Of a stretch of DNA of 64,000 bases, positions 32,551-48,594 are shown piece after piece. How positions within the stretch are numbered: position 1 is the stretch's first letter; the number at the start of each line of letters is the position of its first letter. A program made the position numbers and the translations under genes. The DNA lies in the IMG/VR virus record IMGVR_UViG_3300021976_000010, positions 12,975-76,974 of that record. The stretch is one strand, 5' to 3'. This stretch comes from a virus. A model generated the notes under the pieces. That model did not search any database. It had not been told where the DNA came from and worked only from the letters and a program-made list of their open reading frames with translations.

Positions 32551-32834
32551 TGGGCTGGAAATACATAATGATCCAGAGCAAGCACGGCGACGTGACGTAC
32601 AACTGGCCAATCATCTTTCCGGACAAGATGATTCACAGCGAAGTGGCAGGTTGCGCGCGCATGATGGTGCCTGTCAAGGGTTCTGTCACGGGCATCGTGT
32701 CGGCTGGCAAGATCGAGCATCTCGAGGTCAACGGGCTGGGCGGCGACAGCGAGACACTCAGTCTTGACTCGCGGCCCGAGCAGGACAGTGCAATCATCGA
32801 GATGTACAGCTATCTGCATGGGATCGAAACATGA
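32550..32834 (+). CDS. Hypothetical phage protein
   Basis: TGATG coupling; PIIFP...H...A, VSAG and G.SETL motifs. Confidence 0.6.
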   Translation: MGWKYIMIQSKHGDVTYNWPIIFPDKMIHSEVAGCARMMVPVKGSVTGIVSAGKIEHLEVNGLGGDSETLSLDSRPEQDSAIIEMYSYLHGIET

Positions 32835-34393
32835 GCTTCTACCCAGACATCATGCTCGGTCCACCGGGCACCGGCAAGACGACCACGCTCCTCAATATCC
32901 TTGATGAGGAGCTGACGAAGGGGACGAAGCCGAATCGTATCGGCTACGTCTCGTTCACGCAGCGGGCCGCCGACGAGGCACGCACGCGCGCCATGAAACG
33001 GTTCAACCTCGAGAAGGACGACCTGCCGTACTTCCAGACCATCCACAGTCTGTGCTTTCGTCAGCTCGGCCTTCGCAGCGCCATGGTGCTCGCAGGCACC
33101 AAGCTGAACGAGTTTGCGGACTGGTGCGGCATACGCGTGACCGGGCGCGCGTGGTCGAGCGACGGGACCATGTCGCAGTTCGAGGCTGGTGACCGCATAC
33201 TATTCATGGAGAACCTGTCTAGGGTGCGAGGTGTCGAACTACGAACGCTCTTTAATGAGGACGACGATGAACAGTCGTGGGAAGAAGTGGACCGCGTTGC
33301 CCGGGCGCTGGCCAAGTACAAAAAGGAGCATCACCTCGTAGACTACACCGACATGCTCTCGCAGTTCGTCAGGAGCGGCATCAAGCTCAACCTCGACGTA
33401 CTGCTCGTCGACGAGGCGCAGGATCTCAGCTTTCTTCAGTGGCGCGTGGTGTTCCAGCTTGCCAATGACTGTCGCCGCGTTGTCGTAGCAGGTGACGACG
33501 ATCAGGCCATCTACCGCTGGGCAGGGGCTGACGTCGAGCAGTTCATCAATCTCGAGGGCAATGTGTCGGTGCTCGGGCAGTCGTGGCGCTGCCCGCCGCA
33601 AATTCAGGACGTCAGCGCGGGCGTCATAGGTGGCGTGGTGCACAGGCGTACGAAAAAGTGGGAGCCGCGCAAGGGCAAGGGCGTGGTGGACAGGGTCGTG
33701 GACTTCGATGAAGCTGACGTCAACGACAAGTGGCGCGAAGATTCTGCCACGTCCCCCGTTCTCGTGCTCGCGAGGAACCAGTACATTCTTCAGGAGCACG
33801 TTGAACCGCTCCTGCGCGAGCGGGGGATTGTGTATGAGATGAACGGCAGATCGTCGATCCCGATGAAGGCGCTACAGGCGGCAGAGGCGTGGGAGTTGCT
33901 GAAGAAGGGCAAGAAGGTGTCGCTCGGTGACTGCCGGCTCATGTACGATATGATGAATCCGAAGAACAACGCGGGGCAGGCCGCTGTCAAGCACGGGTTC
34001 AAGGGTCTGCGGGGCTTCGGCGAGGATACCGAGTTGGCTCTCAGCATGCGCGACCTGATTCAGCACGGCGGGCTTCTCGTGAACACGAAGCTGTTATGGC
34101 ACGAAGCACTCGATCGCATGCCAGCCGATGATCTATCCTACATGCTGGCGGCACGGCGCAGGGGCGAGAAGCTGCGCAGTGCTCCGCGCGTGCGACTGAG
34201 CACTATTCACAGCGCCAAGGGTGCAGAGGCGGACCACGTTGTTCTCATGACCGAGATGGCGTGGCGTACTGCACGCGAGGCTGAACAGAATCCGGATGAT
34301 GAACGGCGTGTTTGGTACGTCGGCGTCACGAGGGCACGGCAGCGACTCACGATCGTGAGTTCGCAAACTCAAAACGAATGTCAATGGGTGTGA
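32831..34393 (+). CDS. UvrD/Rep-family (SF1) DNA helicase
   Basis: GPPGTGKT, TIHS, VDEAQD, GDDDQAIY, TIHSAKG.EAD and YVGVTRAR motifs. Confidence 0.95.
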   Translation: MSFYPDIMLGPPGTGKTTTLLNILDEELTKGTKPNRIGYVSFTQRAADEARTRAMKRFNLEKDDLPYFQTIHSLCFRQLGLRSAMVLAGTKLNEFADWCGIRVTGRAWSSDGTMSQFEAGDRILFMENLSRVRGVELRTLFNEDDDEQSWEEVDRVARALAKYKKEHHLVDYTDMLSQFVRSGIKLNLDVLLVDEAQDLSFLQWRVVFQLANDCRRVVVAGDDDQAIYRWAGADVEQFINLEGNVSVLGQSWRCPPQIQDVSAGVIGGVVHRRTKKWEPRKGKGVVDRVVDFDEADVNDKWREDSATSPVLVLARNQYILQEHVEPLLRERGIVYEMNGRSSIPMKALQAAEAWELLKKGKKVSLGDCRLMYDMMNPKNNAGQAAVKHGFKGLRGFGEDTELALSMRDLIQHGGLLVNTKLLWHEALDRMPADDLSYMLAARRRGEKLRSAPRVRLSTIHSAKGAEADHVVLMTEMAWRTAREAEQNPDDERRVWYVGVTRARQRLTIVSSQTQNECQWV

Positions 34394-35546: not shown

Positions 35547-35697
35547 CTGCTCAAAGTGCGACGCTCTCATGGAGCAGCAAGAGGACGACCCATCAGTCGG
35601 TATCACTGGCTGCTGGACATGTACCAACTGTGACCACGTCGAGCCTCTCGAGGACGACGATCACTATCTCGACGATTGCTCAAGGGAGGACAGGTGA
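35536..35697 (+). CDS. Small zinc-ribbon protein (53 aa, absent from the ORF track)
   Basis: MPRNCSKC...WTCTNC; ends in a TGATG overlap with the next gene. Confidence 0.55.
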   Translation: MPRNCSKCDALMEQQEDDPSVGITGCWTCTNCDHVEPLEDDDHYLDDCSREDR

Positions 35698-36689
35698 TGT
35701 CTAGACGAGTTACCAAGGCACAGCAGAAGGGACTCGACGCGTTCTTCGAGTACGCGCGCAAGCGTCATCTGTGCTATATCATGAAGAACGCAGACCCAAG
35801 CTGGAAGATCGACGACGATATTCTCAGTCACTTCAGTTTCTGCAACGTGTTTCGCGAGCTCGACAAGACCACCATCTGGTTTGCCGAGAACGTGCGCAAG
35901 CCGCTCGACAAGGAGAAGCACCCGGGCCTGATACTGGCCACGGTGCTGTTTCGCATGTTCAACCGGATCGAGACCGGCGAGGCCATGTTCTGCGATGATA
36001 ATCTGCTTGGCGACGCCAGCGCGTTTCACGAGTTCTACGCGACCGGCAAGACCGCACCGCTGCGCAGGGCCATCATCAACCGGCTCGGCAAGAAGGGACC
36101 ATATGTCACGGGCTCGTACATCATCGCAGGCCCGGGCGGCATGTCGAAGCTCGACGGCATGCTAAAGGTGGTCAAGGACTTCCATGACTCGACGGCCGAG
36201 TTAGACCTTGTCCAGTCCGACTGGACACTCGCCAACGAACGTATGGAGCTACACAAGTTCTCACTCCAGCAGGCGCATTCGTGGCTTCGTCAGTTCAGCT
36301 TCATGGGCACGTTCCACGCATACGAGATAGTCACCGATCTGCGGTGGACACACCTGCTTCGCCGCGCCCCCGATATCCATTCGTGGGCGAATCCAGGCCC
36401 GGGGTGCAGGCGGGGGTTGAACGTGCTCATGGGTCGTGATAAGGACGCGCGGGAGTGGACAAACAACGATGAGCTGCTCAACGAGATGAACATAATTCTT
36501 GAGGAGTCGACGACGAAACGGCAATGGCAGGCGTTCGCCGGGCAGATGAATGCCAAGTATCCAAAGCTGAGTACACCATTCTCATGGGAAATGCGTGACG
36601 TCGAGCACACGCTATGCGAATTCGACAAGTACGAGCGAACGCGGCACGGTGAGGGCAGGCCGCGCGGACGTTATCGGGGACACGAGTAG
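35697..36689 (+). CDS. aGPT-Pplase1-family protein (HhH-glycosylase-like DNA hypermodification enzyme)
   Basis: FCNVFRELDK.T, LFR.FN..ET, G.F.AYE...D, GPGC.RGL and VEH.LCEFDKY motifs. Confidence 0.85.
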   Translation: MSRRVTKAQQKGLDAFFEYARKRHLCYIMKNADPSWKIDDDILSHFSFCNVFRELDKTTIWFAENVRKPLDKEKHPGLILATVLFRMFNRIETGEAMFCDDNLLGDASAFHEFYATGKTAPLRRAIINRLGKKGPYVTGSYIIAGPGGMSKLDGMLKVVKDFHDSTAELDLVQSDWTLANERMELHKFSLQQAHSWLRQFSFMGTFHAYEIVTDLRWTHLLRRAPDIHSWANPGPGCRRGLNVLMGRDKDAREWTNNDELLNEMNIILEESTTKRQWQAFAGQMNAKYPKLSTPFSWEMRDVEHTLCEFDKYERTRHGEGRPRGRYRGHE

Positions 36690-36770
36690 CACAGGGAGTA
36701 GCGTCATGAGTTTCTATGGAGCACTGTTCATGGGTGTAGTCGTGATACACGTGGCCGCGAGGTACATCGC

Positions 36771-37073
36771 ATGAACGACACGCATGACCCGACGAACGCC
36801 ACGTTCTACGCGTTCAAGGGCTATAGCCTCAGCCGCAAATACTACACGCTCGGTCGAGGTCACCTATCGAAGACGGTGTTCGATCCGCGCACGCCTGACA
36901 GGCTCGCACAGATACTTCTCGACAATGACAATTGCTGGCCCGGTCTGTCTGGTCCGGGTGAGAGTTTCTTTCGCATCGTAATAGGTGACGAGTCTATCGA
37001 CCATGGGTATCCACTCATGTTCGACCCTTCACACGGAATGGTGTTTAACACCGAGTCAACCAAGGAGAAGTGA
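36771..37073 (+). CDS. Hypothetical protein
   Basis: GAGG RBS; overlaps the next gene. Confidence 0.5.
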   Translation: MNDTHDPTNATFYAFKGYSLSRKYYTLGRGHLSKTVFDPRTPDRLAQILLDNDNCWPGLSGPGESFFRIVIGDESIDHGYPLMFDPSHGMVFNTESTKEK

Positions 37074-37921
37074 CCATGCTGCCCATTTTCATACCGAGCA
37101 TGGACAGGGCGGGTGCCCTGTTCGGCAAGATTTCCACGCTCACGCAGATCAAGAAGGTGAAGAATGACGTTCACCTCGTCGTGCCACCGGATCAGGCCAC
37201 GCGCTACCGCAACGCGCTGTTCAACGCGGGTCGCGAGGACGTCGTGGTTCTCGAGTGTCCCGAGAAGGGCATCGCCAAGACGCGGCACTGGATCGGCATG
37301 CTGTGCAAGAAAAAGAAGTGGGACAAGTTCGCGATGTTCGACGACGATCTCAACTTCGCGGTGCGCAAGGACACCACTGGCAACGGGCTGCGCATTCAGG
37401 AGAACAAGGACGTCGTCGAGATGCTGGCGTGGATCGACAAGGCGCTCGACAAGTATGCGCATGTCGGCATATCGCCGCGTGATGCGGCCAAGACCGAGAG
37501 TGTTCAGACCGGTGACAGGCCGCTCATCCTGCTGAACAAGCGCACGCTGCGAACACTGTGCTACCGCACGGATGATTTCCTGTCGGTGAAGCACGGGCGC
37601 GTCGACGTCATGGAAGACTTCGACGTGAATCTGCAACTCATCGAGAAGGGACTGTGGAATGCTCAGACGTACTGGTGGACCAACGACCAGCGCCAGACGG
37701 GCAGCCCGGGCGGGTGTGCCAGCTATCGCAGTCACGAGGTTCACGAGGCCAGCGCCCGCAAACTGGCCGAGCTGCACGCGCCATTCGTCACGTTGCGCGA
37801 GAAGGTCAACAAGGCTCAGGTCGTTAAGTCCGCAGAGGCATTTCAGAAGCGCACCGAGGTCACCATCTACTGGGAAAAGTGCGCGATGAATGCGGGCTGG
37901 AAGAAGGGAGCGGCGAAGTGA
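37070..37921 (+). CDS. TAGT/GREB1-like GT-A glycosyltransferase (DNA-base glycosylating type)
   Basis: IFIPS..R, R..I, FDDDL, EDFDV.LQL...G and GGC motifs. Confidence 0.8.
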   Translation: MTMLPIFIPSMDRAGALFGKISTLTQIKKVKNDVHLVVPPDQATRYRNALFNAGREDVVVLECPEKGIAKTRHWIGMLCKKKKWDKFAMFDDDLNFAVRKDTTGNGLRIQENKDVVEMLAWIDKALDKYAHVGISPRDAAKTESVQTGDRPLILLNKRTLRTLCYRTDDFLSVKHGRVDVMEDFDVNLQLIEKGLWNAQTYWWTNDQRQTGSPGGCASYRSHEVHEASARKLAELHAPFVTLREKVNKAQVVKSAEAFQKRTEVTIYWEKCAMNAGWKKGAAK

Positions 37922-38937
37922 GCACCATCGCACTGTTCTTCTTTCGACCGACGCTAGGCGGCGGCTCGACCACGTTCACGGCACACCTGTACGAAGCGTT
38001 GAAGGCGGTTGGCGAAGACCCCATCATTCTGCGCGTCGGCAGGACGAGCAGCGGCAAGCGCAAGACGTTCGGCGAATATGCTGGCGTCGAGTACATGAAG
38101 GTGGACGTTGCCACGGCAAAGGAGTATGTCAAGAGCATGCCCACGCTGATGACAGCGCCTATCGGGGCCAAGGACCTGCCCGAGCCGGATCTCATTCAGC
38201 AGCTCATCGCGTTGGGAATGCGGGTGGTCATCCACGACCCCAACGAGTTTGACATCTTCGACTATCTCGAGGGCGGCAAGTTCAAGTTCAAGAGGCCGCC
38301 GTTCTGCATACGACCGACGATGCACCGCTTCTACCCAGAGGCGGTGTTCATCCATCACCCGTACAAGCCGGTGACTGCTGACATGAGAATCCAGCGCTCG
38401 AAGCTGGCCTGCTCAACAGCCCGCATCGCGTCGGTGAAGCGGTCGCGAATGCTGCTCGACGCGAACATGGAGGTGCCCAAGGTGCGTCGCATCGAGCTTC
38501 GCGGTGCGGAGTACAGGATGTACACCTACAATCTCATGAAGAAGTATCCACCGGAAATCTTCAAGCAGTCCGGCGGTGAGTTCCAGTTTCCAAAGTCATT
38601 CGAGGCACCTGTGCTCGTGGCCGCGGAATACGAACTCAACTTCGACATGACGCGCTTCCCTGACGACGGCGGCGGAACGCAGTACGCTCAGATGGAGGCG
38701 ATGAACGCGGGCACCGTCAACGTCATGCACGAAGATTGGTGGCGATTCGGCAAGGGCGAGATGGTCCCGGGCAAGCATGTCTTGACGGTCGATGGAATTT
38801 CTGCTATCATCGCTCTGCTGAAGAACCCACCGTCCAACCATAGGCGCGACGAAATCAACGCCAACTGCGCCACGCTGCTCAAGCGACACGCGCCGAAGCT
38901 CATCGGCGGTGCATACCTACAGGAGTTGAAGCGATGA
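37918..38937 (+). CDS. GT-B fold glycosyltransferase, paralog 1
   Basis: GG.TTFT, VIHDP.E, HPY, STAR...KR and DGGGTQY..MEA..AG motifs. Confidence 0.75.
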   Translation: MSTIALFFFRPTLGGGSTTFTAHLYEALKAVGEDPIILRVGRTSSGKRKTFGEYAGVEYMKVDVATAKEYVKSMPTLMTAPIGAKDLPEPDLIQQLIALGMRVVIHDPNEFDIFDYLEGGKFKFKRPPFCIRPTMHRFYPEAVFIHHPYKPVTADMRIQRSKLACSTARIASVKRSRMLLDANMEVPKVRRIELRGAEYRMYTYNLMKKYPPEIFKQSGGEFQFPKSFEAPVLVAAEYELNFDMTRFPDDGGGTQYAQMEAMNAGTVNVMHEDWWRFGKGEMVPGKHVLTVDGISAIIALLKNPPSNHRRDEINANCATLLKRHAPKLIGGAYLQELKR

Positions 38938-39908
38938 AAGAGGTCGCGCTGTTCTCGTGCAATTGGCCGGCTCAGTCAGGGCCTGCCACCTATACCGCCG
39001 AGCTGTATCGCGGGCTCAAGCTCGCTGGGTATACACCCGTCATCTATCGCGTGCGGGATCACGACGAGCAGAAGTTCCGCGCGTATGGTCACTATCGCGA
39101 CGTCACGTACAAAATTGTGTCCCCCGCTTCTGCCTTCGGAATTATCAAGCGCATGCCATCGCTTCTCGTGTCGTCTTGCAATCCGAAGGACTTCAACAAG
39201 GAGGTTCTGCGCGAGATGCTCAAGCGGGGGATGCGCGTGGTGATACATGACCCACGCGAGGAGGAGAACTTTGCCTATGGGGTGCCCGAGCGGCCCATCA
39301 TCATACGACCAGCGGTGAAGAAGCACTTCAAGGACGCGGTGTTCATCCCGCACCCGTACACGCCGCGGAACGTGCAGAACGAGGGCAAGCATATCGCCAC
39401 CTCCACTGCTCGCACCACGTTCATCAAGCGTACCACGATGATTCTCGAGGCTAATCGCGTTCTCAAGCGCGCGCGGCTTGGCACCGTACAGATCATGGGA
39501 GCCGAGAATCGCATGTACGTTCACCACGTGCTGCGAGTCAAGTTTCCAGAGTACAAGTCGCCGCCGTTTCAGTGGTTCGACAAGGGAGCCGAGGTCGCCG
39601 CGCTAGGTCGCTTCAACGTCGACTTCACGGGTGTGAAGGCGGACGGCGGTGGAACGCAGTACACAACGCTTGAGGCCTGGGATGCCGGCTCTATTCCCAT
39701 CATCCATGAAGACTGGATGCGCTTCAAGGGCGAAATGGAGCCGGGCAAGAACTGCTATGCCGTGGACGGCGCGAAGGGCTTGGCGGAGTTGCTACAGCAC
39801 GGCGAAAAGAAGTATAATGCAGCGATGGTGAAGCGCGGGCGCGAGGGCCTCACCATTCACGACAGTCGCACCATAGCGCGTAGAACAATGAAAGAGGTCA
39901 CACGATGA
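38934..39908 (+). CDS. GT-B fold glycosyltransferase, paralog 2
   Basis: VIHDP.E, HPY, STAR...KR and DGGGTQY..LEA..AG motifs; colinear with the upstream gene. Confidence 0.75.
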   Translation: MKEVALFSCNWPAQSGPATYTAELYRGLKLAGYTPVIYRVRDHDEQKFRAYGHYRDVTYKIVSPASAFGIIKRMPSLLVSSCNPKDFNKEVLREMLKRGMRVVIHDPREEENFAYGVPERPIIIRPAVKKHFKDAVFIPHPYTPRNVQNEGKHIATSTARTTFIKRTTMILEANRVLKRARLGTVQIMGAENRMYVHHVLRVKFPEYKSPPFQWFDKGAEVAALGRFNVDFTGVKADGGGTQYTTLEAWDAGSIPIIHEDWMRFKGEMEPGKNCYAVDGAKGLAELLQHGEKKYNAAMVKRGREGLTIHDSRTIARRTMKEVTR

Positions 39909-40942
39909 AGTATCCAAGGCAAGAGCCGCCGAACGCGGTGCAGATCGAGCTCGTCGAGGGCTGCAATCTGCGCTGCGCAGTGTGCGGGCTGAACGGCATT
40001 CGTGGCAAGGCCAACGACTACAAGGCCATGGAAACCGCCACGCTCAAGTCCGCTATCGAGCAGATGGTTGCGCTCGACTGGAATCCACGCATCGAGTTTG
40101 CCATGCACGGCGAGCCCTCGATGCACCCGGATTTCAACGCGATGGTAAGAGTCGCGCGCGAGGTGGGTCCGCGCTTCCAGATCATGATGACATCGAACGG
40201 CGGCGGCTTCTTGAGTAAGCCCGGGCCGCTCGCAAAGGTGAGGGGCTTCTTCGAGGCCGGGGGCAACGTGCTTGCGTTCGACGACTATGAGAACGCCAAT
40301 CTCGTACCAAAGATTCGCAAGGCACTGGAGCCCTACACGGAACAGGCGATAGACTCGGCCTGCGCCGCGATACTCTCGTTCAAGGGTGGTCCGGCTGTTG
40401 ATGTCTACGAATATCCACAGATGAGGGAGGGTAATCCTCACACGCGCGGCCACGTGAGCGAGAGTAGGCTCGTGTTCATCCAAGACCTGATCACCGCCAG
40501 CAAGGGCACACATTCCCACGTGAACAATCACGCGGGCGCGGGCGGGCCGCCGAACGAGAAGGGGCAGGGCAAGCGGTGTGCGAAACCGTTCCGAGAGCTG
40601 AGCATTCGCTGGGACGGCAACGTCGCGGTGTGCTGCAACGATTGGCGCGGCATCTACCAGTGCGGCAACGTAGTCAAGGACGGGCTCGACGCGGTGTGGA
40701 ACGGCAGGGCCATGGGTGCAGCGCGCGTGAAACTGTATCACCGCGAACGCGACTTCGGCCCGTGCGAGGGCTGCGACGCGCTCAGCACGCGAGTTGGCCT
40801 GCTTCCCGACAAGCTGGGGAAAGAGGAAATGCCGAAGCCTGACGCTGGCGTCAAGCGCGATATCGCGGCGGCCTTGGCCAAGGGGCCGTTCACCAAACCC
40901 GTGCTCCGACCGTGGGAGGTGACCAGTGGTAAATCGAAGTGA
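39905..40942 (+). CDS. Radical SAM enzyme with SPASM/twitch-like C-terminal domain
   Basis: CNLRCAVC, HGEP, TSNG and C..PF......DG.V..CC.D...C..C motifs. Confidence 0.92.
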   Translation: MKYPRQEPPNAVQIELVEGCNLRCAVCGLNGIRGKANDYKAMETATLKSAIEQMVALDWNPRIEFAMHGEPSMHPDFNAMVRVAREVGPRFQIMMTSNGGGFLSKPGPLAKVRGFFEAGGNVLAFDDYENANLVPKIRKALEPYTEQAIDSACAAILSFKGGPAVDVYEYPQMREGNPHTRGHVSESRLVFIQDLITASKGTHSHVNNHAGAGGPPNEKGQGKRCAKPFRELSIRWDGNVAVCCNDWRGIYQCGNVVKDGLDAVWNGRAMGAARVKLYHRERDFGPCEGCDALSTRVGLLPDKLGKEEMPKPDAGVKRDIAAALAKGPFTKPVLRPWEVTSGKSK

Positions 40943-41282
40943 GACCAGCGATACCCGAGTGGTCTACGGGTTCTTCTGCTCGTGGTGGGGCGGCATCGAG
41001 GAGATTGGCAGGCACCACACTGCCAAGGAGGGAGATCCACACCCGCTGCCCGGGTGTCCGCACTGTCGCAACGGATTGTTGCAAGTGGACAGCGCCGAGG
41101 TGTGGTGGACCGGCGTCGAGAAGGTGAACGCTAAAACACCGGGCTACAAGGACTTCATCTCGTGGCTCAAGGGCAAGTGCTACCGCGACGAGGGCGGCGT
41201 GTCTGGCTTCAGACGCGCGCTCGCCGCGTATAACGAGAATGAGGCCAATCGGCCCGGTCGCGTGAAGGTGGTGCTGCCATGA
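40926..41282 (+). CDS. Cys-containing hypothetical protein
   Basis: CSWW and LPGCPHC motifs; overlaps both neighbours. Confidence 0.55.
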   Translation: MVNRSETSDTRVVYGFFCSWWGGIEEIGRHHTAKEGDPHPLPGCPHCRNGLLQVDSAEVWWTGVEKVNAKTPGYKDFISWLKGKCYRDEGGVSGFRRALAAYNENEANRPGRVKVVLP

Positions 41283-41533
41283 GTATGAGCTTCTACGAGG
41301 GCAAGGTCGTCGAGTTCATGTACATCAACCATCGCGGCGTCGAGGAGATTCGTCGCGTGGTGCCGCGCTACATATTCCACGGGAACTCCAAGTGGCACCC
41401 GATGGAGCCGAAGCAGTGGTTTCTCGTGGCAACCTGCCTCGACCGGCAGGCTGACCGGCACTTCAAGTTCTCGGCCGACAACATGAAGGGCTGGGATATC
41501 AGCGAAGATCAGACCCTGCCGTGGAGGGCGTGA
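41279..41533 (+). CDS. Stand-alone WYL-like domain protein
   Basis: F.Y.N.RG...RRV.P..I......W....WFL.A.C.DR...R.F pattern. Confidence 0.7.
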   Translation: MSMSFYEGKVVEFMYINHRGVEEIRRVVPRYIFHGNSKWHPMEPKQWFLVATCLDRQADRHFKFSADNMKGWDISEDQTLPWRA

Positions 41534-41536
41534 TGA

Positions 41537-41854
41537 ATGGCAAAGAAGGTAGTCGCAAAGAAGAAATCCGCAGTGTCGGCAAAGAAGGCCGCCCCAAAGG
41601 CCGCCACATCACGCTCTGGGTCCTCGACGACCCAGTCACGACCTACACCACGAGCAGCCGCGTCCTCGCCGGAAAAGATATCTACGAAGAGTTTATCCGC
41701 CGAAACAATGAGCACGTGGCACAAGAGCGTCGCGCGCGCAGCCGGGCAAATCTCCTTGACACTGTCTCGGCGGCGTCGCTCCGCAACATTCGTTGATGAT
41801 CTGCTGGAGCTGCTCGCTCCAGTAGTGGAAGAAATGCGCACGTATCAACAATAG
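41537..41854 (+). CDS. Small basic protein (Lys/Ala-rich N-terminus)
   Basis: MAKKVVAKKK start; GGAGG upstream. Confidence 0.55.
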   Translation: MAKKVVAKKKSAVSAKKAAPKAATSRSGSSTTQSRPTPRAAASSPEKISTKSLSAETMSTWHKSVARAAGQISLTLSRRRRSATFVDDLLELLAPVVEEMRTYQQ

Positions 41855-41864
41855 GGAGGCCATC

Positions 41865-42098
41865 ATGGCTGGAAGCTACGGACATGTTACGAACGCTGAC
41901 GGAACCTATCGCGGAGTTGCTCTGCTCGAGAACATGGGCGACATGCACGAGGCGGTCGAGGAGATGTGGTTCATGATCCATAACCTCGCTGGCGGCGATC
42001 AGACGAAGATCAAGGCAGCGAGCGACGCATATTTCATGTGTCTGCGCGGGGAGACGCCTTGGCCGGTAGCCATGTTGGAGACGAAGAGCAATGAGTAA
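41865..42098 (+). CDS. Hypothetical protein
   Basis: GGGAGG RBS. Confidence 0.6.
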   Translation: MAGSYGHVTNADGTYRGVALLENMGDMHEAVEEMWFMIHNLAGGDQTKIKAASDAYFMCLRGETPWPVAMLETKSNE

Positions 42099-42351
42099 CA
42101 TCGGGCTCACCGAGTGGGAAGTCGAAGAGATACGCAGGGAGGCGGCGGCAAGCGAAATGAACATCATCACGATCTACCTCAAGGGAAACTACGCGCGGCT
42201 CGGGCCGCATAGTGGTGCAGACTGGGACAGGGGCTATCTCGCCAACGAGACCAACGTCGCTGTCACAATAGCCGACAACGAGTACGGGCTCAATCAACGA
42301 TGCTACATGCGCAACGACATCGCACGAATCGAGCACACCGGGCACTGGTGA
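42091..42351 (+). CDS. Hypothetical protein
   Basis: Overlaps the upstream gene. Confidence 0.5.
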   Translation: MSNIGLTEWEVEEIRREAAASEMNIITIYLKGNYARLGPHSGADWDRGYLANETNVAVTIADNEYGLNQRCYMRNDIARIEHTGHW

Positions 42352-42398
42352 CGCTCGCAGTCGGTTATACAAAGTTATACACAGGCGCGCACCGGGGC

Positions 42399-42427
42399 TT
42401 GTTCTGGTGCGGCCTGTGCGGGAGAAT
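42399..42427 (+). promoter_or_regulatory. Conserved phage promoter motif upstream of the UDG-like / hydroxymethylase operon
   Basis: TTGTTC-TGGTGCGGCCTGTGCGG-GAGAAT; shares the 14-mer GGGGCTTGTTCTGG with position 27554. Confidence 0.6.
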
Positions 42428-42456
42428 AGGGCTTCACAAGCGAACAGGGTATATCC

Positions 42457-42903
42457 ATGCGTCCAGTATTGATTGGGATGAACAATCCAGTGAGCAGCGA
42501 GCCGGAGCACGCGCTGTTCCCGTATCCAGAGGGCTGCACCGGGCACCGTCTTCTAGCGATGCTTCAATCGCGCGTTCCGAAGGCCACTCGTCGCGAGTAT
42601 TGCGCGCGGTTCGACCGGCGCAACGTGGTCAGCGCCAAGGTGTTCGACAGCAAGATGGCGCAGAAAGGAGCGGCAGACCTGTTCAATGAGTTCTTCGGCT
42701 CTGGACGCACGGTCGTTCTGCTCGGGGCTGACACCGTGGCGGCATTCGGCATCCCCCGGCTGCTGATTCACCCGCAGATGATCGGGGGAGCCACGTATCG
42801 GCAGATACCACACCCGAGCGGGCGCAATCTTTGGTACAACGTTGACGAGAACAAGGTGCTCGTCTCAATGCTCTTGGAGGATCTCTACAATGGCGCAGTC
42901 TGA
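42457..42903 (+). CDS. Uracil-DNA glycosylase superfamily protein
   Basis: LIG.NNP (motif A-like), TG.RL, RRN, VVLLG..V..AF and PHPSGRN.WYN (motif B). Confidence 0.72.
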   Translation: MRPVLIGMNNPVSSEPEHALFPYPEGCTGHRLLAMLQSRVPKATRREYCARFDRRNVVSAKVFDSKMAQKGAADLFNEFFGSGRTVVLLGADTVAAFGIPRLLIHPQMIGGATYRQIPHPSGRNLWYNVDENKVLVSMLLEDLYNGAV

Positions 42904-43222
42904 TGATGAATGTTCGTGCATCGGTGAACTGGAACAGCTCCATCTTGCTGACCAGTACGCCGAGCAGGTTGCCTGCGAATTCGTAGAGACTTTTGGTGGA
43001 GTGTGCCCATCGATGCTGGACTACGTGACCGAGAGAATCATTGCTCGACTCGTGCACGTGGCCGTCATGAATCGCGACGAGAACCTGATCGTCAGCGAGC
43101 GCAAGACGCTCGATGCGACAGCCGACTATATCTTCAGGCTCAGCAAGACTGCACCGGCTACCCTGAAGATTATCATGGACGATGCAGCACGAAAAGGAGA
43201 ACCGGCGAATGCGAGTAATTGA
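42890..43222 (+). CDS. Hypothetical protein
   Basis: GGAGG RBS; overlaps both neighbours. Confidence 0.55.
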   Translation: MAQSDDECSCIGELEQLHLADQYAEQVACEFVETFGGVCPSMLDYVTERIIARLVHVAVMNRDENLIVSERKTLDATADYIFRLSKTAPATLKIIMDDAARKGEPANASN

Positions 43223-44291
43223 AGTCGAAGACGTGAACGAGGCGTACTGGCGAGGTATGAACATACTGCGCACGGATGGTATCGACGAGGACAGCCGCAA
43301 CGGGCCGGTTCGCGTTATGCCTGAGCCGGTGACCACGGTGTACCGCAAGCCGCGTCAGCGCGTGCTTTTCGACATGAAGCGTGCGGCCAATCCGTTCTTC
43401 CACCTGTTCGAGTCGCTGTGGATGCTGGCCGGTCGTGACGACGTGGGAGCGTTGAACCGCTACATCACCGACTTCGGCACGCGCTTCGCCGAGTCCGACG
43501 GCACTGTTCACGGCGCATACGGGCACCGCTGGCGCAAGGCGTTCGGCTTCGACCAGCTCGACGCCATCGTCGCGCGGTTGCGCGCCAATCCGCGAGACCG
43601 GCAATGTGTTCTGCAGATGTGGGACGCGCGGATGGAGGACGGTTCTGACGCTGGGACTGACTACTTTGGTGAGAACGATCTGCTCGGCGTCTGGAAGGAC
43701 AGGCCGTGCAATACGCAGGTCTACTTCCGCGTTCGCGAGAATGCACCGGAGGAGAAATGGGCGGCGGGCGGCGCAGTGCCAGAGCCAGTACTCGACATGA
43801 TGGTCACGTGTCGCAGCAACGACATTGTCTACGGTGCATACGGCGCGAACGCGGTGCACTTCAGTATCCTTCAGGAGTACATGGCAGGTCGCATCGGCGT
43901 GCGCGTCGGGAACATGGAACAGGTCTCGTTCAACTACCATGCCTATCACGACGTTCTCGCGCGCGTGGGGTGCCCCGCGTATCTCGAGACCTACACCGGG
44001 CATAAGCTGAAGGCGCTCCCGATCGGGAACGCCTGGGAAGCGTGGGACGCTGATCTCATGTATTTCATGTCGTGGCACAAGACCATGACCGAGACCGGCG
44101 TCACCGAGGCTGGCACATATATCAACAAGTGGTTCAAGTTCACAGCTGAGCCGCTGTTCATTGCTCACTACAAGTGGAAGAGCGCCATGCACAAGGAGGC
44201 GAAGACAATGGCGCAGCTCATCGAGTCCGAAGACTGGCGCTTCGCGGCGCTCATGTGGTTCGAGACTCGTACGAATGCGAGGAGCCGATGA
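43209..44291 (+). CDS. Thymidylate synthase-like enzyme, probable dUMP hydroxymethylase
   Basis: GAYG.RWR, RQ.VL.MWD, PCN, RSNDIVYGAYGANAVHFS and NYHAY motifs; Asn at the dUMP-specificity position. Confidence 0.85.
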   Translation: MRVIEVEDVNEAYWRGMNILRTDGIDEDSRNGPVRVMPEPVTTVYRKPRQRVLFDMKRAANPFFHLFESLWMLAGRDDVGALNRYITDFGTRFAESDGTVHGAYGHRWRKAFGFDQLDAIVARLRANPRDRQCVLQMWDARMEDGSDAGTDYFGENDLLGVWKDRPCNTQVYFRVRENAPEEKWAAGGAVPEPVLDMMVTCRSNDIVYGAYGANAVHFSILQEYMAGRIGVRVGNMEQVSFNYHAYHDVLARVGCPAYLETYTGHKLKALPIGNAWEAWDADLMYFMSWHKTMTETGVTEAGTYINKWFKFTAEPLFIAHYKWKSAMHKEAKTMAQLIESEDWRFAALMWFETRTNARSR

Positions 44292-44860
44292 ATCTCGCGG
44301 AAGACCCACGCGCGGCGGGCGAGATCCGTCGCTATCACACATGGGCCGTGCACTCCGACCAGACTGTCGGGCTGCACACGTGGCAGATACTGCGCATTCT
44401 GCTGACGGTGTGGCCGAACTGCCCTCGCAACGTGATAGTGTACGGCATCATTCACGACGCCGGTGAGATGAGTGGTGACATTCAGTATCCATTCAAGATC
44501 CTGTTTCCTGAACTGCGAGCCGGCGCCGACAAGGCCGAGAATCACGTCCGCGACATGCAGAGAAAGGGCATCGGCGCACCACCAGAACCACACCCGCTGT
44601 CAGTCTTCGAGAAAGCGGTGTTCAAGTGCTGTGATAACCTCGACATGTGGGAATATGGCCTGCGCGAAATGAACATGGGCAACCTGTACGCCGGTATCAT
44701 CGTCGAGCGAATGGCGGCGGCGGTTGCCGAGAACGTGTCGTCGATCAGCGGCATGTTCAACTCTAACAATCGTCAGGCCCTCCAGAATCCTGACGTCAAC
44801 GCGAACATCCACAAGTACATGCAAACCCGTTTGAAAATGGAGACTATCGATGGCAAGTGA
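44288..44860 (+). CDS. HD-domain deoxynucleotidase (YfbR-like)
   Basis: RRYHT, TV..H.W, HD..E...GDI.YP.K and K..D..D motifs. Confidence 0.85.
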   Translation: MNLAEDPRAAGEIRRYHTWAVHSDQTVGLHTWQILRILLTVWPNCPRNVIVYGIIHDAGEMSGDIQYPFKILFPELRAGADKAENHVRDMQRKGIGAPPEPHPLSVFEKAVFKCCDNLDMWEYGLREMNMGNLYAGIIVERMAAAVAENVSSISGMFNSNNRQALQNPDVNANIHKYMQTRLKMETIDGK

Positions 44861-46283
44861 CGACATGAACCACATGGAACATCTCGAGAGCGTGGCGCTC
44901 TCAGACTGTGCAGTGCTGCAATCGAAGGAGGCGACCTATCAAGGGTCGTGGAAGCGAGCGGGTGGCGTCAGCGCGTGGTTCATGGCACGGCGCAATCTCG
45001 ATCGGTTGATAACGATGATGGCGCCGAAACAGTTTCCGGATCATATCACGACGCAGCAGAACGTCATGGATACGCTGAGTGCCGTGGACAACATCGTTCA
45101 CTACGCTGGTAACGTGCGCGGCCTGCCCGGTAGCATCGAGGCCACGCGTCAGATCCTCGCGATGCTCGGTGATCGCTTCACTGCCAATGACATCTTCGCC
45201 AAGATCAGAGCGAACCCGGGCGGCGAAGATGGCACCGTGCTCGCCATTGTCCGAGACGCGCGGCGCTACTTCATGCTCGTCGAGGCTGAGATGATCGCCG
45301 AGGGCGTCGTAGAGCCCGAGTCCAAGACGTACGAGCAAGAGGCCAATGTCTACGTCACACCGGAGACGGACATCTACCAACTCATCGCGGACGAGAAGAG
45401 CATACCGCGCGAGGAGGTCAAGCGACTCATCCACGAGCTGTTCTACAATACACCGCCGGCTCCCCCGCCTCCTCTTACCACTCCAATCGACGTCACAATT
45501 TGCGTTGCGGTGGGTAATGACGGTGAGCCTGCTCACGAGTACGTGTTTCAGAAATGTACGAGTGTGAGTCTGGACAGTGAACCGGGCAAGCTTCGTGTCT
45601 CGATCACACCGCAGCGATCGTTAGGCGGGGGATACGCAGTGGAACAGGCCGCGCGTCACAAGGAGGGACCGCCGTGGCTCGATAAGATTGGCGGACGGCT
45701 ACAAATTGGTGACTTGTGCACGTGGATGCGGCCTGAGGATGGTGCCACGTTCGTCGTCGAGCTTCACGCTGTGGAAGGGGGCCTGCCCGTGGTGAAGGGT
45801 GAGCCAGCGGTGCCAGCAGAGGGGCGCAGGCTGTCGAGCTGGTCGCAGCTACGCTATGCGGTAGAGAACAAGCGTCGAAGGTTCTTCGCTGACGGTGGTA
45901 GTCAGCACTCGTCGATGATACCGTGGGAGATCCCGGGGTCTTATCACGAGACGATCAAGGCTCGCATCGGCGACGAGATCGATCTGTGGTGGAGGCAGAT
46001 GACACCCGGCATGTGGCGTCTGTATCCAGTTGTTCTGACGCGAAGCATACCGCGGGAACTACGGGACATCTTCGAACTTGCGCCTGGAATCAGCAGCACT
46101 TGGGTTCTACGTCTCAGCCTTCTACCGCCCGGCTTGCGTGATGAGTTCCCACGCATACAGGTCGAGATGAATGACAAGGAGTATGATCTGTCGCCATCCG
46201 ATTTCAAGTTCATGTATCGGCGCGTCGGTGACAAGTGGGTCGTACGCGACGAGTACCGCGAAGAATGGGGTGTCGAGGCGTGA
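44850..46283 (+). CDS. Nucleotide-modification-associated (MazG-like) domain fused to a long uncharacterised C-terminus
   Basis: N-terminal K...Y..SWK..GG..A.....R..DRL and D.RRY..L.EAE motifs. Confidence 0.6.
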   Translation: MASDDMNHMEHLESVALSDCAVLQSKEATYQGSWKRAGGVSAWFMARRNLDRLITMMAPKQFPDHITTQQNVMDTLSAVDNIVHYAGNVRGLPGSIEATRQILAMLGDRFTANDIFAKIRANPGGEDGTVLAIVRDARRYFMLVEAEMIAEGVVEPESKTYEQEANVYVTPETDIYQLIADEKSIPREEVKRLIHELFYNTPPAPPPPLTTPIDVTICVAVGNDGEPAHEYVFQKCTSVSLDSEPGKLRVSITPQRSLGGGYAVEQAARHKEGPPWLDKIGGRLQIGDLCTWMRPEDGATFVVELHAVEGGLPVVKGEPAVPAEGRRLSSWSQLRYAVENKRRRFFADGGSQHSSMIPWEIPGSYHETIKARIGDEIDLWWRQMTPGMWRLYPVVLTRSIPRELRDIFELAPGISSTWVLRLSLLPPGLRDEFPRIQVEMNDKEYDLSPSDFKFMYRRVGDKWVVRDEYREEWGVEA

Positions 46284-46465
46284 CACAGGTCATATTCGCA
46301 TGGCTCTACTACGGCACGGCGGTCTTTTTCCTGCTCGTCGTGCCGTACTTCGTCTATGAAAAGAACGGGAGCCAGACAGCGGCCTTGCTCTCGTTCTTTG
46401 TTGTTCTTCTGATATCGCTGCAATACTATCAAGCACTGAGAAAGTTGATATGGTCAAGTCTGTAA
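46280..46465 (+). CDS. Small two-TM membrane protein
   Basis: GTGA overlap; two hydrophobic segments. Confidence 0.45.
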   Translation: MTQVIFAWLYYGTAVFFLLVVPYFVYEKNGSQTAALLSFFVVLLISLQYYQALRKLIWSSL

Positions 46466-48594
46466 AACCGCGGCGACAGGTGATGAACCCGGATCAGATA
46501 CCACTCATCACACCAGACAGCGCGTGGACGGTGCCGACGGAGCTCCCGGATCTCAGTCGCATCGACGCCATCGCCATTGACACTGAGGACTACGATCAAG
46601 GGCTGCTCGATGGGCGCGGCCCGGGCTGGGCATTCAAGTCCAAGTCTTCCGGGGGCTACTTGGCAGGCGTGAGCGCGGCGTGGTGGCAGGATGGCGAGGT
46701 GCGCAGCATCTATGTTCCCATCAACCACCCTGATACCAACTGCATCGATCTATCACGGGCGAAGAAGTGGGTCGCGCATCTACTGAACCGCAAGAAGGGA
46801 CAGCGAGCTATCTTCTGCAATGCCGACTTTGATCTTGGCTGGATCGAGAATTCAATCAGCGGCCTTGGCATCGCACTTCCCGACGGCGAATTCATCGACG
46901 ATGTCGGTGCGCAGGCCATGCTCATCGACGAGAATCGCAGGGCCAAGAAGGGGCAGACATCGGCCTATTCCCTCGACGCGATCGCTGAATGGTGCGGCGT
47001 CGAGATGAAGGACGAAGTGGCGCTTCGCGAGGCCGCCGCCGCGTATGGATACAAGGGAAAGGATGTCAAGAGGTTCATCGCGAAGCTGCCCGCGCGCTAC
47101 GTTGGTCCATACGCGGAACAGGACGCCCGCTCCACGCTGCTCGCGCACGAAGTAATGGTGCCAATCATCGATGAACAGGAACTCAACGACGCATACGACC
47201 TCGAGATGGGGCTCGTGCCAGTAGTACACGCCATGCGGAAGCGTGGCATACGTGTCAACGAAGACCGGCTCTGGCAGCTTCACGATAACCTCATGGATCA
47301 GCACCAGAAAGCGTGCGACAAGATATACGACATCACGAAGATGCGTGTATCCATTGATGAAATCAGGCAGAAAGACTGGCTCATCAGGGTCTGTGATATG
47401 CACGGCATCACCGAGTATATCACTGGAGAAAACGCGCTCGGTGAGAACGAGACCGAGTTCACCAAGAACTGGATGCGCGCGTCGCAGCATCCGCTGCCCC
47501 GGGCAATCGCAGAGGCAAAGCAGTGTCACGAGGCCGCCACGAAGTTCGTGAAGACCTACCTCATCGACTCTATCGTGGACGGGCGCATCCACGCGAACAT
47601 CAACCAGTTCAAGACGGAAGACGGCGGCACCAAGACGCACCGTTTCTCCTATTCCGATCCACCATTGCAGCAGATGCCGAGCCGGCCAGACCCTGTCGAG
47701 GGCTGGTTCATCACTGAATTCATCGCGGCGGCAATCCGCACCGCATTCGAGCCCGAGCCGGGGGAGCTATGGTTCGCCCCCGATTATTCGCAGCAGGAAT
47801 ACAGGCTCATCGTTCACTACGCATATCTCATGGAATGTGCCAAGGCCGACGACGCCGTGCGAATGTATCTCGAGGACCCGAACACCGACTTCCACAATCT
47901 GGTGGTCGCTCTCACTGGCCTAACGCGGCGCAGGGCAAAGGACGTGAACTTCGCCAAGGCGTATGGAGCCGGCATTAAGAAGTTTGCGTTGATGACAGGA
48001 ATGTCACTAGAAGAAGCCGAGAAGGTGATGGGGCAGTACGATAGGGAAATGCCGTTCGTCAAGGAGCTCAACGATATTTGCGATCGCAGCGCGGCCGAGC
48101 GTGGTTACATACGCATGATCGACAAGGCGCGTTCGCACTTCGACGAATGGGAGCCGCGTTGGTTGGACCGCTCCGAGCGTCAGCGTGGGTACGCCGAGTA
48201 CTTCGCGATGAACCCGTGTCGCCACGAAGAAGCGCTCGAACGCTGCGAAACGAAGAATCACCCGTGGTTCAAGAAGGCACTGCGCCGCGCAGATACACGC
48301 AAGGCGATGAATCGTCTCATTCAGGGCAGTGCAGCGAGACAGACGAAGCGCGCGATGCTGTCGTGTTGGCGCGCGGGATATCTCGCGATGCTGCAAATGC
48401 ACGATGAACTCGCATTCTCTCTGATGAAAGAGAAAGACGGAAAGATCATCGGTGAAATAATGCGCAACGCTATCAAGATCAGTGTGCCGATGCGCGTCGA
48501 CGAAGAATATGGCGAGACTTGGGGAACGGCAAAATACGCGTTCGCAGACGCGCGCAGGGCGGGCAAGGGTGCCGCGCCCGCGCTGGCGGCCTAG
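46450..48594 (+). CDS. polA: Family A DNA polymerase with 3'-5' exonuclease domain
   Basis: Exonuclease motifs IDTE, NA.FD and YAEQD; polymerase motif A DYSQQEYR, motif B AKDVNFAKAYG and motif C MHDEL. Confidence 0.95.
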   Translation: MVKSVKPRRQVMNPDQIPLITPDSAWTVPTELPDLSRIDAIAIDTEDYDQGLLDGRGPGWAFKSKSSGGYLAGVSAAWWQDGEVRSIYVPINHPDTNCIDLSRAKKWVAHLLNRKKGQRAIFCNADFDLGWIENSISGLGIALPDGEFIDDVGAQAMLIDENRRAKKGQTSAYSLDAIAEWCGVEMKDEVALREAAAAYGYKGKDVKRFIAKLPARYVGPYAEQDARSTLLAHEVMVPIIDEQELNDAYDLEMGLVPVVHAMRKRGIRVNEDRLWQLHDNLMDQHQKACDKIYDITKMRVSIDEIRQKDWLIRVCDMHGITEYITGENALGENETEFTKNWMRASQHPLPRAIAEAKQCHEAATKFVKTYLIDSIVDGRIHANINQFKTEDGGTKTHRFSYSDPPLQQMPSRPDPVEGWFITEFIAAAIRTAFEPEPGELWFAPDYSQQEYRLIVHYAYLMECAKADDAVRMYLEDPNTDFHNLVVALTGLTRRRAKDVNFAKAYGAGIKKFALMTGMSLEEAEKVMGQYDREMPFVKELNDICDRSAAERGYIRMIDKARSHFDEWEPRWLDRSERQRGYAEYFAMNPCRHEEALERCETKNHPWFKKALRRADTRKAMNRLIQGSAARQTKRAMLSCWRAGYLAMLQMHDELAFSLMKEKDGKIIGEIMRNAIKISVPMRVDEEYGETWGTAKYAFADARRAGKGAAPALAA

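Follow-up and report, generated by a model that had tools for sequence, protein, structure and literature searches.

A candidate kinase-free cassette for thymidine hypermodification in an uncultured phage combines glycosyltransferases with a BtrN-like radical SAM enzyme

Overview of the cassette

We examined a stretch of 64,000 nucleotides (hereafter the window, numbered from its first base), which covers bases 12975–76974 of the IMG/VR virus record IMGVR_UViG_3300021976_000010, and report in it a gene cassette that probably serves a kinase-independent hypermodification of thymidine: 5-hydroxymethyluracil (5-hmU) would be made and glycosylated, and its sugar would then be tailored by a radical S-adenosylmethionine (SAM) enzyme. 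The cassette lies between the genes of a UvrD-like helicase and a family A DNA polymerase (PolA). It comprises a homolog of HMUDK_hel (formerly aGPT-Pplase clade 1), one TAGT-family glycosyltransferase (GT) of the GT-A type, two tandem GT paralogs of the GT-B type, a radical SAM enzyme resembling BtrN, a thymidylate synthase (TS) homolog and an HD-domain hydrolase. Gene identities, folds, motifs and co-occurrence were observed directly and make for a well-supported gene system, from which we infer the chemistry.

A first-pass annotation had listed these enzymes together with a uracil-DNA glycosylase (UDG)-like and a MazG-like gene, and had proposed that 5-hmU made by the TS homolog is glycosylated and then tailored by radical chemistry. 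We recovered all the enzyme genes between UvrD and PolA on the + strand where that annotation had placed them, with the exception of the UDG-like and MazG-like labels, and the proposed order of events is backed, as far as sequence can suggest it, by the TS signature, the GT-B neighbours and the co-occurrence of the BtrN-like enzyme. Most of the genes had also been described as translationally coupled, and ATGA or GTGA start/stop overlaps were present at most junctions, namely between a 100-amino-acid (aa) open reading frame (ORF; o100) and TAGT, between TAGT and GT-B paralog 1, between the two GT-B paralogs, between GT-B paralog 2 and the radical SAM gene, between the ORF o118 and a WYL gene, and between the TS and HD genes.

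Glycosylated hydroxymethylpyrimidines are established in T-even phages, in TET-linked 5-hydroxymethylcytosine (5hmC) systems and in base J, as are 5-hmU-derived bases in M6, ViI, PhiW-14, SP10 and SP-15/YerA41. Surveys have already noted that GTs often adjoin thymidylate synthase homologs or 5mYOX genes in metaviromes. The enzyme combination had been regarded as unfamiliar from characterised pathways, and we likewise found no paper describing the enzyme set in the literature searched, nor any description there of a radical SAM enzyme in a DNA-glycosylation cluster, of this GT-B family or of a kinase-free aGPT-Pplase clade 1.

The source record is a virus of 76,974 bp, rated complete at 100% by CheckV, with a G+C content of ~59%, and the genes in the cassette region are all on the + strand. 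Nucleotide megablast of the region against 50,697 GenBank phage records returned no match, while protein matches and gene order placed the phage near the Mesyanzhinovviridae (Pseudomonas phage M6 and relatives, and PhiJL001); we treat it as an uncultured, siphovirus-like phage related to this family. Gene neighbourhoods were drawn from IMG/VR loci only (labelled L001 and so on). A pattern scan of IMG/VR for the GT-B family gave 77 viral loci, and a scan for the radical SAM family gave 165 viral contigs, of which the best 80 were used for the context counts.

The thymidylate synthase homolog and the HD hydrolase

The TS homolog (43182–44291, + strand) was of the M6 gp58 type: it matched PF00303 with 62.9 bits (cut-off 24.3) and phrog_5131 (E 9e-89), and it was ~39–40% identical to M6 gp58 and to PhiJL001 gp24. 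Asn at the E. coli N177 position is the signature of uracil-directed enzymes, whereas cytosine-directed enzymes carry Asp there. Alignment to ThyA and MilA confirmed the Asn that had been read at this position (GAN), and also placed the catalytic Cys (E. coli C146) in an RPCN motif. The equivalent of Asp169 was kept (RSND), so that the D169N mark of 5-hydroxy-dCMP synthases (RB69/DLP3, PMC13326640) is absent. Across 25 aligned sequences, the pattern KDxPCN and RSND..GAN was common to this enzyme, M6 gp58, PhiJL001 gp24 and the TS homologs of related loci. The TS homolog would thus be best read as a dUMP hydroxymethylase, because M6, with the same TS signature, derives its hypermodified thymidine from 5-hydroxymethyldeoxyuridine (5-hmdU; PMC5889632).

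It is extremely unlikely that the enzyme is instead an ordinary dTMP synthase or cytosine-directed, with the cassette modifying something other than 5-hmU. Its closest solved structures by sequence were the CMP hydroxymethylase MilA and ThyA, both matched weakly, and product specificity cannot be read from sequence; but the Asn at N177 with Asp169 retained is neither the cytosine nor the 5-hydroxycytosine-synthase signature (PMC13326640), the signature is that of M6 gp58, and the gene co-occurs with HMUDK_hel, a family of phages that hypermodify 5-hmU.

The start codon of the HD gene (44288–44860, + strand) overlaps the TS stop codon (ATGA). Its product, which had been taken for an HD nucleotidase, proved to be an HD phosphohydrolase-like protein and the counterpart of M6 gp59, according to matches to phrog_6047 (E 1.6e-21), phrog_7076 (dATP triphosphohydrolase, E 5e-5) and M6 gp59 itself (tblastn E 2.4e-7). 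It may clear nucleotide pools. In a related locus (L101:9514–12093), simple ORF calling gave a 608-aa TS homolog followed by a second TS piece.

The three glycosyltransferases

The TAGT-family gene (37070–37921, + strand) was confirmed as a GT-A glycosyltransferase of this type by a match over the full profile of PF20691 (66.9 bits, cut-off 27.5; positions 2–205 of 205). Its best PHROG was phrog_842, beta-glucosyl-HMC-alpha-glucosyltransferase (E 2e-35; HMC, hydroxymethylcytosine), and it was 35% identical to PhiJL001 gp22. The R...DDD...ED[YF] motifs that form the active site of DNA GT-A enzymes (Pyle et al., 10.1101/2023.12.21.572611) were kept as R...DDD...EDF, with SMDR at residue 10, FDDD at 90 and MEDFD at 181. 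The enzyme would be expected to move a sugar onto a hydroxymethylpyrimidine in DNA.

The two following genes, GT-B paralog 1 (37918–38937, + strand; longest ORF from 37879; its GTG at 37918 overlaps the TAGT stop as GTGA) and GT-B paralog 2 (38934–39908, + strand; GT4-like fold with a DGGGTQY..LEAWDAG motif), were 37% identical to each other (E 8e-60), in agreement with their first description as paralogs, and the GT-B fold first assigned to them was borne out by an AlphaFold model and Foldseek. The model, built from 18 homologs (pLDDT 90.6), had the two Rossmann domains of the GT-B fold; the retaining GT4 enzymes HepE, BshA and MshA were closest (E ~1e-10 to 1e-11, TM 0.7), and T4 alpha-glucosyltransferase aligned with TM 0.67–0.69. 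No Pfam (including Glycos_transf_1 and Glyco_transf_4), NCBIfam or PHROG match was obtained for either paralog. Since the fold is predicted to be GT-B yet membership in these databases is absent, the paralogs form, on the model, a new family. This family is rare, with 18 clusters among 5.8 billion proteins.

Among the 77 viral GT-B loci, the gene adjoined an M6-type TS homolog in 25 and HMUDK_hel in 24, and it lay directly downstream of a Tet/JBP dioxygenase in 26 others, so that a TS or Tet/JBP source stood beside it in 51 of the 77. ParB-N was also present in 20 of these 26 loci, ParB being found in 23 GT-B loci overall; phage T-dioxygenases that depend on ParB make 5-hmU after replication and have the same architecture (PMC13229309). 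The M6 kinase and the amino-acid:DNA transferase (AADT) were found in none (0/77). In a quick maximum-likelihood tree with SH-aLRT support, all TS-linked GT-Bs formed one clade (97), in which the TAGT-linked members formed a subclade (99) holding both paralogs of the window; paralog 1 was sister to the single-copy GT of L007. Two GT-B copies occurred in only one other locus of the 77, and three GTs are unusual for a cassette of this kind. The strongest evidence available on the acceptor is that one GT family adjoins two unrelated 5-hmU-making enzymes, which suggests that these GT-Bs act on 5-hmU in DNA.

The same double association speaks against the view that the acceptor of the GTs and of the radical SAM enzyme is something other than DNA (a virion protein, the host envelope or a SPASM-matured peptide), with the TS homolog alone handling nucleotides. 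GT4-like enzymes do usually use lipids or small molecules, SPASM/twitch enzymes often mature peptides, and small ORFs flank the genes (36771–37073 and 40926–41282). But the genes are translationally coupled and sit in the replication module, TAGT is a family of DNA glycosyltransferases (PF20691; Pyle et al.), and a separate GT2/methyltransferase cassette is found in the head module, so that we regard this view as very improbable. In particular, a pathway for ribosomally synthesised and post-translationally modified peptides, built from the SPASM enzyme and the small ORFs, was ruled out: the first of these ORFs was kept in 0/80 and the second in 1/80 of the radical SAM loci.

Three further arrangements of the GT-B gene were observed in the related loci. 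ParB-N, the Tet/JBP dioxygenase and GT-B formed a tight three-gene unit in ~20 contigs (L035:8501–10939, L030, L033, L053, L025 and others), a candidate post-replicative system for glycosyl-5-hmU resembling base J. In 11 of the 77 loci (e.g. L069:8699–11047, L044, L047, L075, L077), the gene ahead of GT-B coded for a 421-aa radical SAM protein with distant similarity to M6 gp53 (23% over 200 aa, E 7e-6). ParB was near in 5 of the 11, and none of them had a TS or Tet/JBP gene; the BtrN-like gene also follows in L077–L080. These loci may represent a third route that activates the thymine methyl group. Finally, L016:8900–16806 contained HMUDK_hel, GT-B, an M6 gp53-like (SPL-like) radical SAM gene, two M6 gp52-like pyridoxal phosphate (PLP) enzymes, TS and HD, and neither kinase nor AADT was found within the 20 kb examined. 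Its radical SAM gene is split by an in-frame insert of ~395 aa (an 857-aa ORF), possibly an intein, and the locus as a whole seems to mix features of the sugar branch with those of the amino-acid branch.

The BtrN-like radical SAM enzyme

The radical SAM gene (39905–40942, + strand) matched the SPASM domain PF13186 with 43.7 bits (cut-off 21.5), and Radical_SAM PF04055 with 27.8 bits, just below the cut-off of 29.5; together with a CX3CX2C motif, the SPASM/twitch domain sustains its assignment to the radical SAM/SPASM enzymes. Eight Cys were invariant among 16 homologs, namely C20, C24 and C27 of the CX3CX2C motif, C225, C243, C244, C287 and C290, a spacing that presumably resembles that of BtrN with its single auxiliary cluster of the twitch type. 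BtrN is the radical SAM 2-deoxy-scyllo-inosamine dehydrogenase of butirosin biosynthesis, which converts a secondary alcohol on the ring of an aminocyclitol to a ketone. It was on top in phmmer against PDB (E 1.4e-8), and a model built from the 16 homologs (pLDDT 82) matched it in Foldseek (E 4e-9, TM by target 0.74). VIA-align to BtrN (PDB 4m7t) gave Z 20.4 and a root-mean-square deviation of 2.5 over 222 of 246 residues, with 20% identity and with the domain of the auxiliary cluster included; the next class, anSME, reached Z 12.7. SpeY, DesII, AbmM and BlsE, radical SAM enzymes that act on sugars or cyclitols, were also among the structural matches. The CX3CX2C motif is common to BtrN and the phage enzyme, but the latter is ~100 residues longer, and its gene belongs to a DNA-modification cassette. 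It presumably acts on a sugar attached to DNA and, judging from the model, the reaction is most likely the oxidation of a secondary alcohol to a ketone.

Within the 80 loci, the radical SAM gene occurred with TS in 74, HMUDK_hel in 69, TAGT in 58 and GT-B in 19. Split by GT type, 48 loci had TAGT only, 10 had both, 9 had GT-B only and 13 had neither, so that at least one type was present in 67; the kinase, AADT and Tet/JBP genes were absent from all of them (0/80). The same radical SAM enzyme was also found with Tet/JBP and GT-B and no HMUDK_hel (L045 and L076). Because of these last loci, we define the recurrent unit as a 5-hmU source, a GT of either fold and the BtrN-like enzyme, with HMUDK_hel added in the TS-type phages.

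These counts bear on whether the radical SAM enzyme and HMUDK_hel instead act on the base, for example turning 5-hmU into 5-formyluracil or another product, while the GTs decorate the remaining 5-hmU. The radical SAM gene tracks TS and HMUDK_hel more constantly than it does either GT, most Tet/JBP-linked GT-B loci lack it, and dehydrogenases of the anSME type, its second-best structural class, convert the CH2OH of Ser to an aldehyde. BtrN, with its secondary alcohol on a cyclitol, nevertheless fits far better (Z 20.4 versus 12.7), a GT is present in 67/80 loci, and L045 and L076 combine the enzyme with Tet/JBP and GT-B in the absence of HMUDK_hel; we consider action on the base improbable.

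It is also conceivable, and to us clearly unlikely, that the radical SAM enzyme alters a free nucleoside diphosphate (NDP)-sugar donor, from which the GTs then place an unusual sugar on 5-hmU. BtrN, DesII, SpeY and BlsE do act on free small-molecule sugars or cyclitols, and no other sugar-nucleotide enzyme was present among the window ORFs scanned. Such a donor would, however, have to be accepted by two unrelated GT folds, TAGT and GT-B, and the known tailoring steps, that of the M6 radical SAM enzyme included, work on the DNA polymer (PMC8989533). Action on the DNA-linked sugar is the reading that we prefer.

Neither the radical SAM enzyme nor GT-B had a homolog in cultured phages among the 50,697 GenBank phage records; the sole match of either was a distant radical SAM protein, 22% identical, encoded in a metagenomic record from human faeces that carries no annotation. 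In one related locus (L092:7200–9026), simple ORF calling gave a 608-aa radical SAM ORF with an unexplained N-terminal extension of 270 aa; this ORF and the odd TS ORF of L101 could be due to inserts, inteins or fusions.

HMUDK_hel and the absence of a kinase and transferase

The first gene of the cassette (35697–36689, + strand; its start ATG at 35697 is preceded by the Shine-Dalgarno sequence AAGGGAGGA) had been called aGPT-Pplase1-like, and it indeed belongs to PF18723 (141 bits, cut-off 25; profile positions 4–278 of 281), the family of M6 gp55 and PhiJL001 gp19, to which it was 33–41% identical (41% for gp19). The current Pfam name of this family is HMUDK_hel, "5-hmdU DNA kinase, helical domain", although the protein of the window has no kinase domain. 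The paralog M6 gp55 was not needed in reconstituted reactions (Lee 2018, PMC5889632; Lee 2021, PMC8989533), and aGPT-Pplase clade 1 is described as a helix-hairpin-helix, DNA-glycosylase-like protein by Iyer 2013, as cited in Lee 2021 (PMC8989533).

Among 20 HMUDK_hel homologs, R30, N57, R60, D63, R93, K158, D221, a GPGxxRG hairpin and C314-E315-x-x-K318 were invariant, with C314 lying within a D-[IV]-E-H-[ST]-L-C-E-x-D-K-Y motif. In the paralogous amino-acid:DNA transferases, Glu and Thr bind a metal and the Cys three residues on is the catalytic nucleophile (PMC13458397); the invariant E-x-x-L-C of HMUDK_hel resembles this arrangement of Glu and Cys. The conserved residues suggest that HMUDK_hel is no passive domain but catalyses a reaction on a flipped-out base. 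We found no longer fused forms of HMUDK_hel, either with a kinase or with a GT, which is weak evidence, and a prediction of its complex with GT-B paralog 1 ended without a verdict (score 0.00), which speaks neither for nor against binding.

A search of the whole genome with PF18724 (AADT, or aGPT-Pplase2) gave no match at E <= 1, and tblastn with M6 gp51, gp52, gp53 and gp54 gave none either. The plausible P-loop proteins among the ORFs with a Walker A motif were UvrD and the product of a 511-aa ORF that precedes the window and may encode the large subunit of the terminase; two other matches look spurious. The complete 77-kb genome therefore contains no P-loop 5-hmdU kinase, amino-acid:DNA transferase or PLP enzyme. 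The pathways of M6, PaMx11, ViI, PhiW-14 and SH-Ab 15599 need such a kinase and an amino-acid/diamine:DNA transferase (PMC8989533; PMC13458397); since the genome lacks them, the pathway is not one of the M6/ViI/PhiW-14 type.

Proposed pathway

As a first step, the TS homolog would make 5-hydroxymethyl-dUMP, as its homology to M6 gp58 suggests, and the HD hydrolase, perhaps with a NUDIX hydrolase encoded upstream, would keep dTTP and dUTP out, so that new DNA carries 5-hmU for T. TAGT and/or the GT-B paralogs would then put sugars on the 5-hydroxymethyl group in DNA, judging from their fold, family and context; the donors are assumed to be host NDP-sugars, because no sugar-nucleotide gene was present among the window ORFs scanned. 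The three GTs might build a di- or trisaccharide, or might serve separate subsets of sites or anomers like the two glucosyltransferases of T4. They need not imply a trisaccharide, as TAGT alone (48/80) or GT-B alone (9/80) serves most related cassettes, and for the same reason either GT type may start the glycan. In a third step, the BtrN-like enzyme would abstract hydrogen from the DNA-linked sugar, with ketone formation as the most likely outcome according to the structure and epimerisation as the alternative. HMUDK_hel, finally, is not a kinase; it probably turns the modified base out of the helix and processes it in a Cys-dependent step. The end product would shield the DNA from host nucleases.

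Several observations weigh against this pathway. Both GT types are missing from 13 of the 80 radical SAM loci: several are truncated by the end of the contig, two have other weak GT-B-like ORFs (Pfam gave weak GT-B hints in L087 and L153), and others have unknown ORFs, those at the place of the GT in L082, L092 and L101 showing no similarity to the GT-B profile. The radical SAM enzyme may act on the base, given its closer tracking of TS and HMUDK_hel, and neither an aminotransferase nor a reductase that could use a keto-sugar is present. The GT-Bs lack Pfam membership and their acceptor is read from context alone, while the sequence of the TS homolog does not separate hydroxymethylase from methylase activity. 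The comparison of HMUDK_hel with the transferases is limited as well: hhalign of its profile with M6 gp51 (AADT) covered 21 columns round the Cys motif with a probability of 1.4%, and the E-V-E-T-V-L-C of gp51 that is weakly aligned there is a motif lead and not proof of homology.

In its most specific form, the proposal is that the product is a hitherto undescribed kind of DNA base, a glycosyl-5-hmU with a sugar that the BtrN-like enzyme oxidises or rearranges while it is attached to the polymer, that HMUDK_hel performs a Cys-dependent step with no kinase, and that the GT-B family marks a base J analogue. This full combination is a tentative one, which we hold with less than even confidence. 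If true, it would be the first DNA glycan tailored by a radical SAM enzyme; HMUDK_hel, a puzzle since 2013, would have a Cys-dependent activity that needs no kinase; and the GT-B family would be the hallmark of a base J analogue that is widespread in phages and is supplied by TS, Tet/JBP and possibly SPL-like radical SAM enzymes.

Flanking genes and other ORFs

The left flank of the cassette is the UvrD-like helicase (32831–34393, + strand; PF00580, E 2e-31), present in 37/80 radical SAM loci, and the right flank is a 714-aa ORF read as the family A DNA polymerase (46450–48594, + strand), present in 55/80 and syntenic with M6 gp62 and PhiJL001 gp28; its name is based on this synteny with the annotated M6 and PhiJL001 polymerases and on matches to the ORF that occupies the corresponding position in related loci. 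The close relatives L081–L083, L092 and L101 had a common order of UvrD, exonuclease, HMUDK_hel, a variable GT block and the radical SAM gene, followed on the TS side by a 148-aa ORF, TS, HD, the family of a 477-aa ORF and PolA.

The 148-aa protein (42457–42903, + strand) matched phrog_12275, of unknown function (E 5e-18), and was found in 6 close relatives. This is the gene that had been labelled UDG-like, and the label is weakly backed: an Atlas structural neighbour (TM 0.86) belongs to a cluster with PF03167 on 12% of its members, and GMNNP/HPSG-like motifs can be read by eye, but no UDG hidden Markov model matched, and neither PF03167 nor PDB gave a match. The protein is possibly a small member of the UDG superfamily. 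The 477-aa protein (44850–46283, + strand) has a conserved N-terminal domain of ~160 aa and a likewise conserved C-terminal domain, with homologs in 7 loci, and lies between HD and PolA in the close relatives. The MazG-like label given to it found no backing, as no Pfam, PHROG or NCBIfam match was obtained, nor any PDB match with phmmer or with a six-sequence profile. DUF1599 was also considered for this ORF and is a sub-threshold lead at most, with an Atlas score of 0.78, and a genome scan with PF07659 was without match. The ORF o100 (36771–37073, + strand), which overlaps TAGT by GTGA, had no Pfam or PHROG match and was found in 0/157 related loci.

Upstream of UvrD we identified an AEP-TOTE-type primase domain protein (29421–31049) and the NUDIX hydrolase (31646–32095), which may have a role in nucleotide-pool control, as well as a SNF2-family helicase on the minus strand (25855–27375). 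A second enzyme cassette was detected in the head module (window 1988–5619), just ahead of a DUF2213 head protein, with a Methyltransf_24 gene (2692–3459), a GT2 glycosyltransferase (4151–4879) and three ORFs without family; it probably glycosylates virion proteins and is distinct from the DNA cassette. A was in steady excess over T on the + strand across window positions 28000–64000 (AT skew +0.1 to +0.2), which hold the early and replication genes. Finally, a homolog of the GcrA cell-cycle regulator (PF07750, E 4e-13) was found inside the modification cassette of a close relative (L081:6439–6984), which suggests that phages of this group infect an alphaproteobacterial (Caulobacter-like) host.

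Significance and comparison with known systems

Hypermodification of phage DNA decides whether restriction enzymes and CRISPR nucleases can cut it, limits the sequencing and cloning of phage DNA, and has yielded tools for mapping epigenetic marks. The thymidine pathways elucidated to date depend on a 5-hmdU kinase together with a transferase for amino acids or polyamines, and the cassette would represent a second, kinase-free branch built on GTs and a sugar-type radical SAM enzyme. This branch occurs widely in metaviromes, where at least 165 contigs carry it, and is absent from the cultured phages of GenBank. It offers two candidates for cloning, namely a bacterial-virus glycosyltransferase for 5-hmU in DNA and a radical SAM enzyme that would tailor a DNA glycan, as well as a test of the role of the long-unexplained aGPT-Pplase clade 1 protein.

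The cassette shares with M6 and PaMx11 (PMC5889632, PMC8989533) the module order HMUDK_hel (gp55) ... TS (gp58), HD (gp59) and PolA and the active-site signature of the TS homolog, and M6 also uses a radical SAM enzyme on a DNA-borne adduct. Unlike in those phages, there is no P-loop 5-hmdU DNA kinase, AADT (PF18724), PLP enzyme or flavin adenine dinucleotide enzyme here; GTs stand in for the kinase and the transferase, and the radical SAM enzyme resembles BtrN, whereas M6 gp53 is SPL-like. The only cultured phage that we found with the same core is PhiJL001, an Alphaproteobacteria phage (Keylargovirus, AY576273), which has HMUDK_hel (gp19), a TAGT-type "glucosyl transferase" (gp22) and a TS homolog (gp24), followed by PolA, but neither a radical SAM gene nor GT-B; no description of its DNA chemistry was found in the literature searched.

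T-even phages with glucosyl-HMC and TET-linked systems with sugars on 5hmC (Pyle et al., 10.1101/2023.12.21.572611) resemble the cassette in that GT-B and TAGT-type GT-A enzymes glycosylate a 5-hydroxymethylpyrimidine in DNA, and phrog_842, the best PHROG of our TAGT, is named after the second-glucose transferase of T2/T6. They differ in the base, which here would be uracil-derived according to the Asn signature, in the GT-B, which here belongs to a separate GT4-like family, and in that no radical SAM step has been described for them. SP-15, YerA41 and Carin-5 (PMC12686479, PMC13697223) likewise carry sugar-bearing, thymidine-derived bases and have a TS homolog and an aGPT-Pplase-type gene, and SP-15 glycosyltransferases were among the viral structural matches; these large myoviruses, however, attach their sugars via a pentyl linker and phosphate, have UDG-fused polymerases, and have not been reported to carry a BtrN-like radical SAM enzyme (PMC12686479, PMC13697223).

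Base J, the beta-D-glucosyl-hydroxymethyluracil of kinetoplastids, belongs to the product class that we propose here, glycosyl-5-hmU, and many relatives of the GT-Bs adjoin Tet/JBP genes. We take the base J glucosyltransferase to be a member of the TAGT family. It is the top structural homolog in AlphaFold DB of the phage GT-A enzymes of the TAGT type (Pyle et al., 10.1101/2023.12.21.572611). In contrast to base J, 5-hmU would here come from a TS homolog before replication instead of from a JBP dioxygenase, several GTs would take part along with a radical SAM enzyme, and the likely purpose is protection from nucleases rather than gene regulation.

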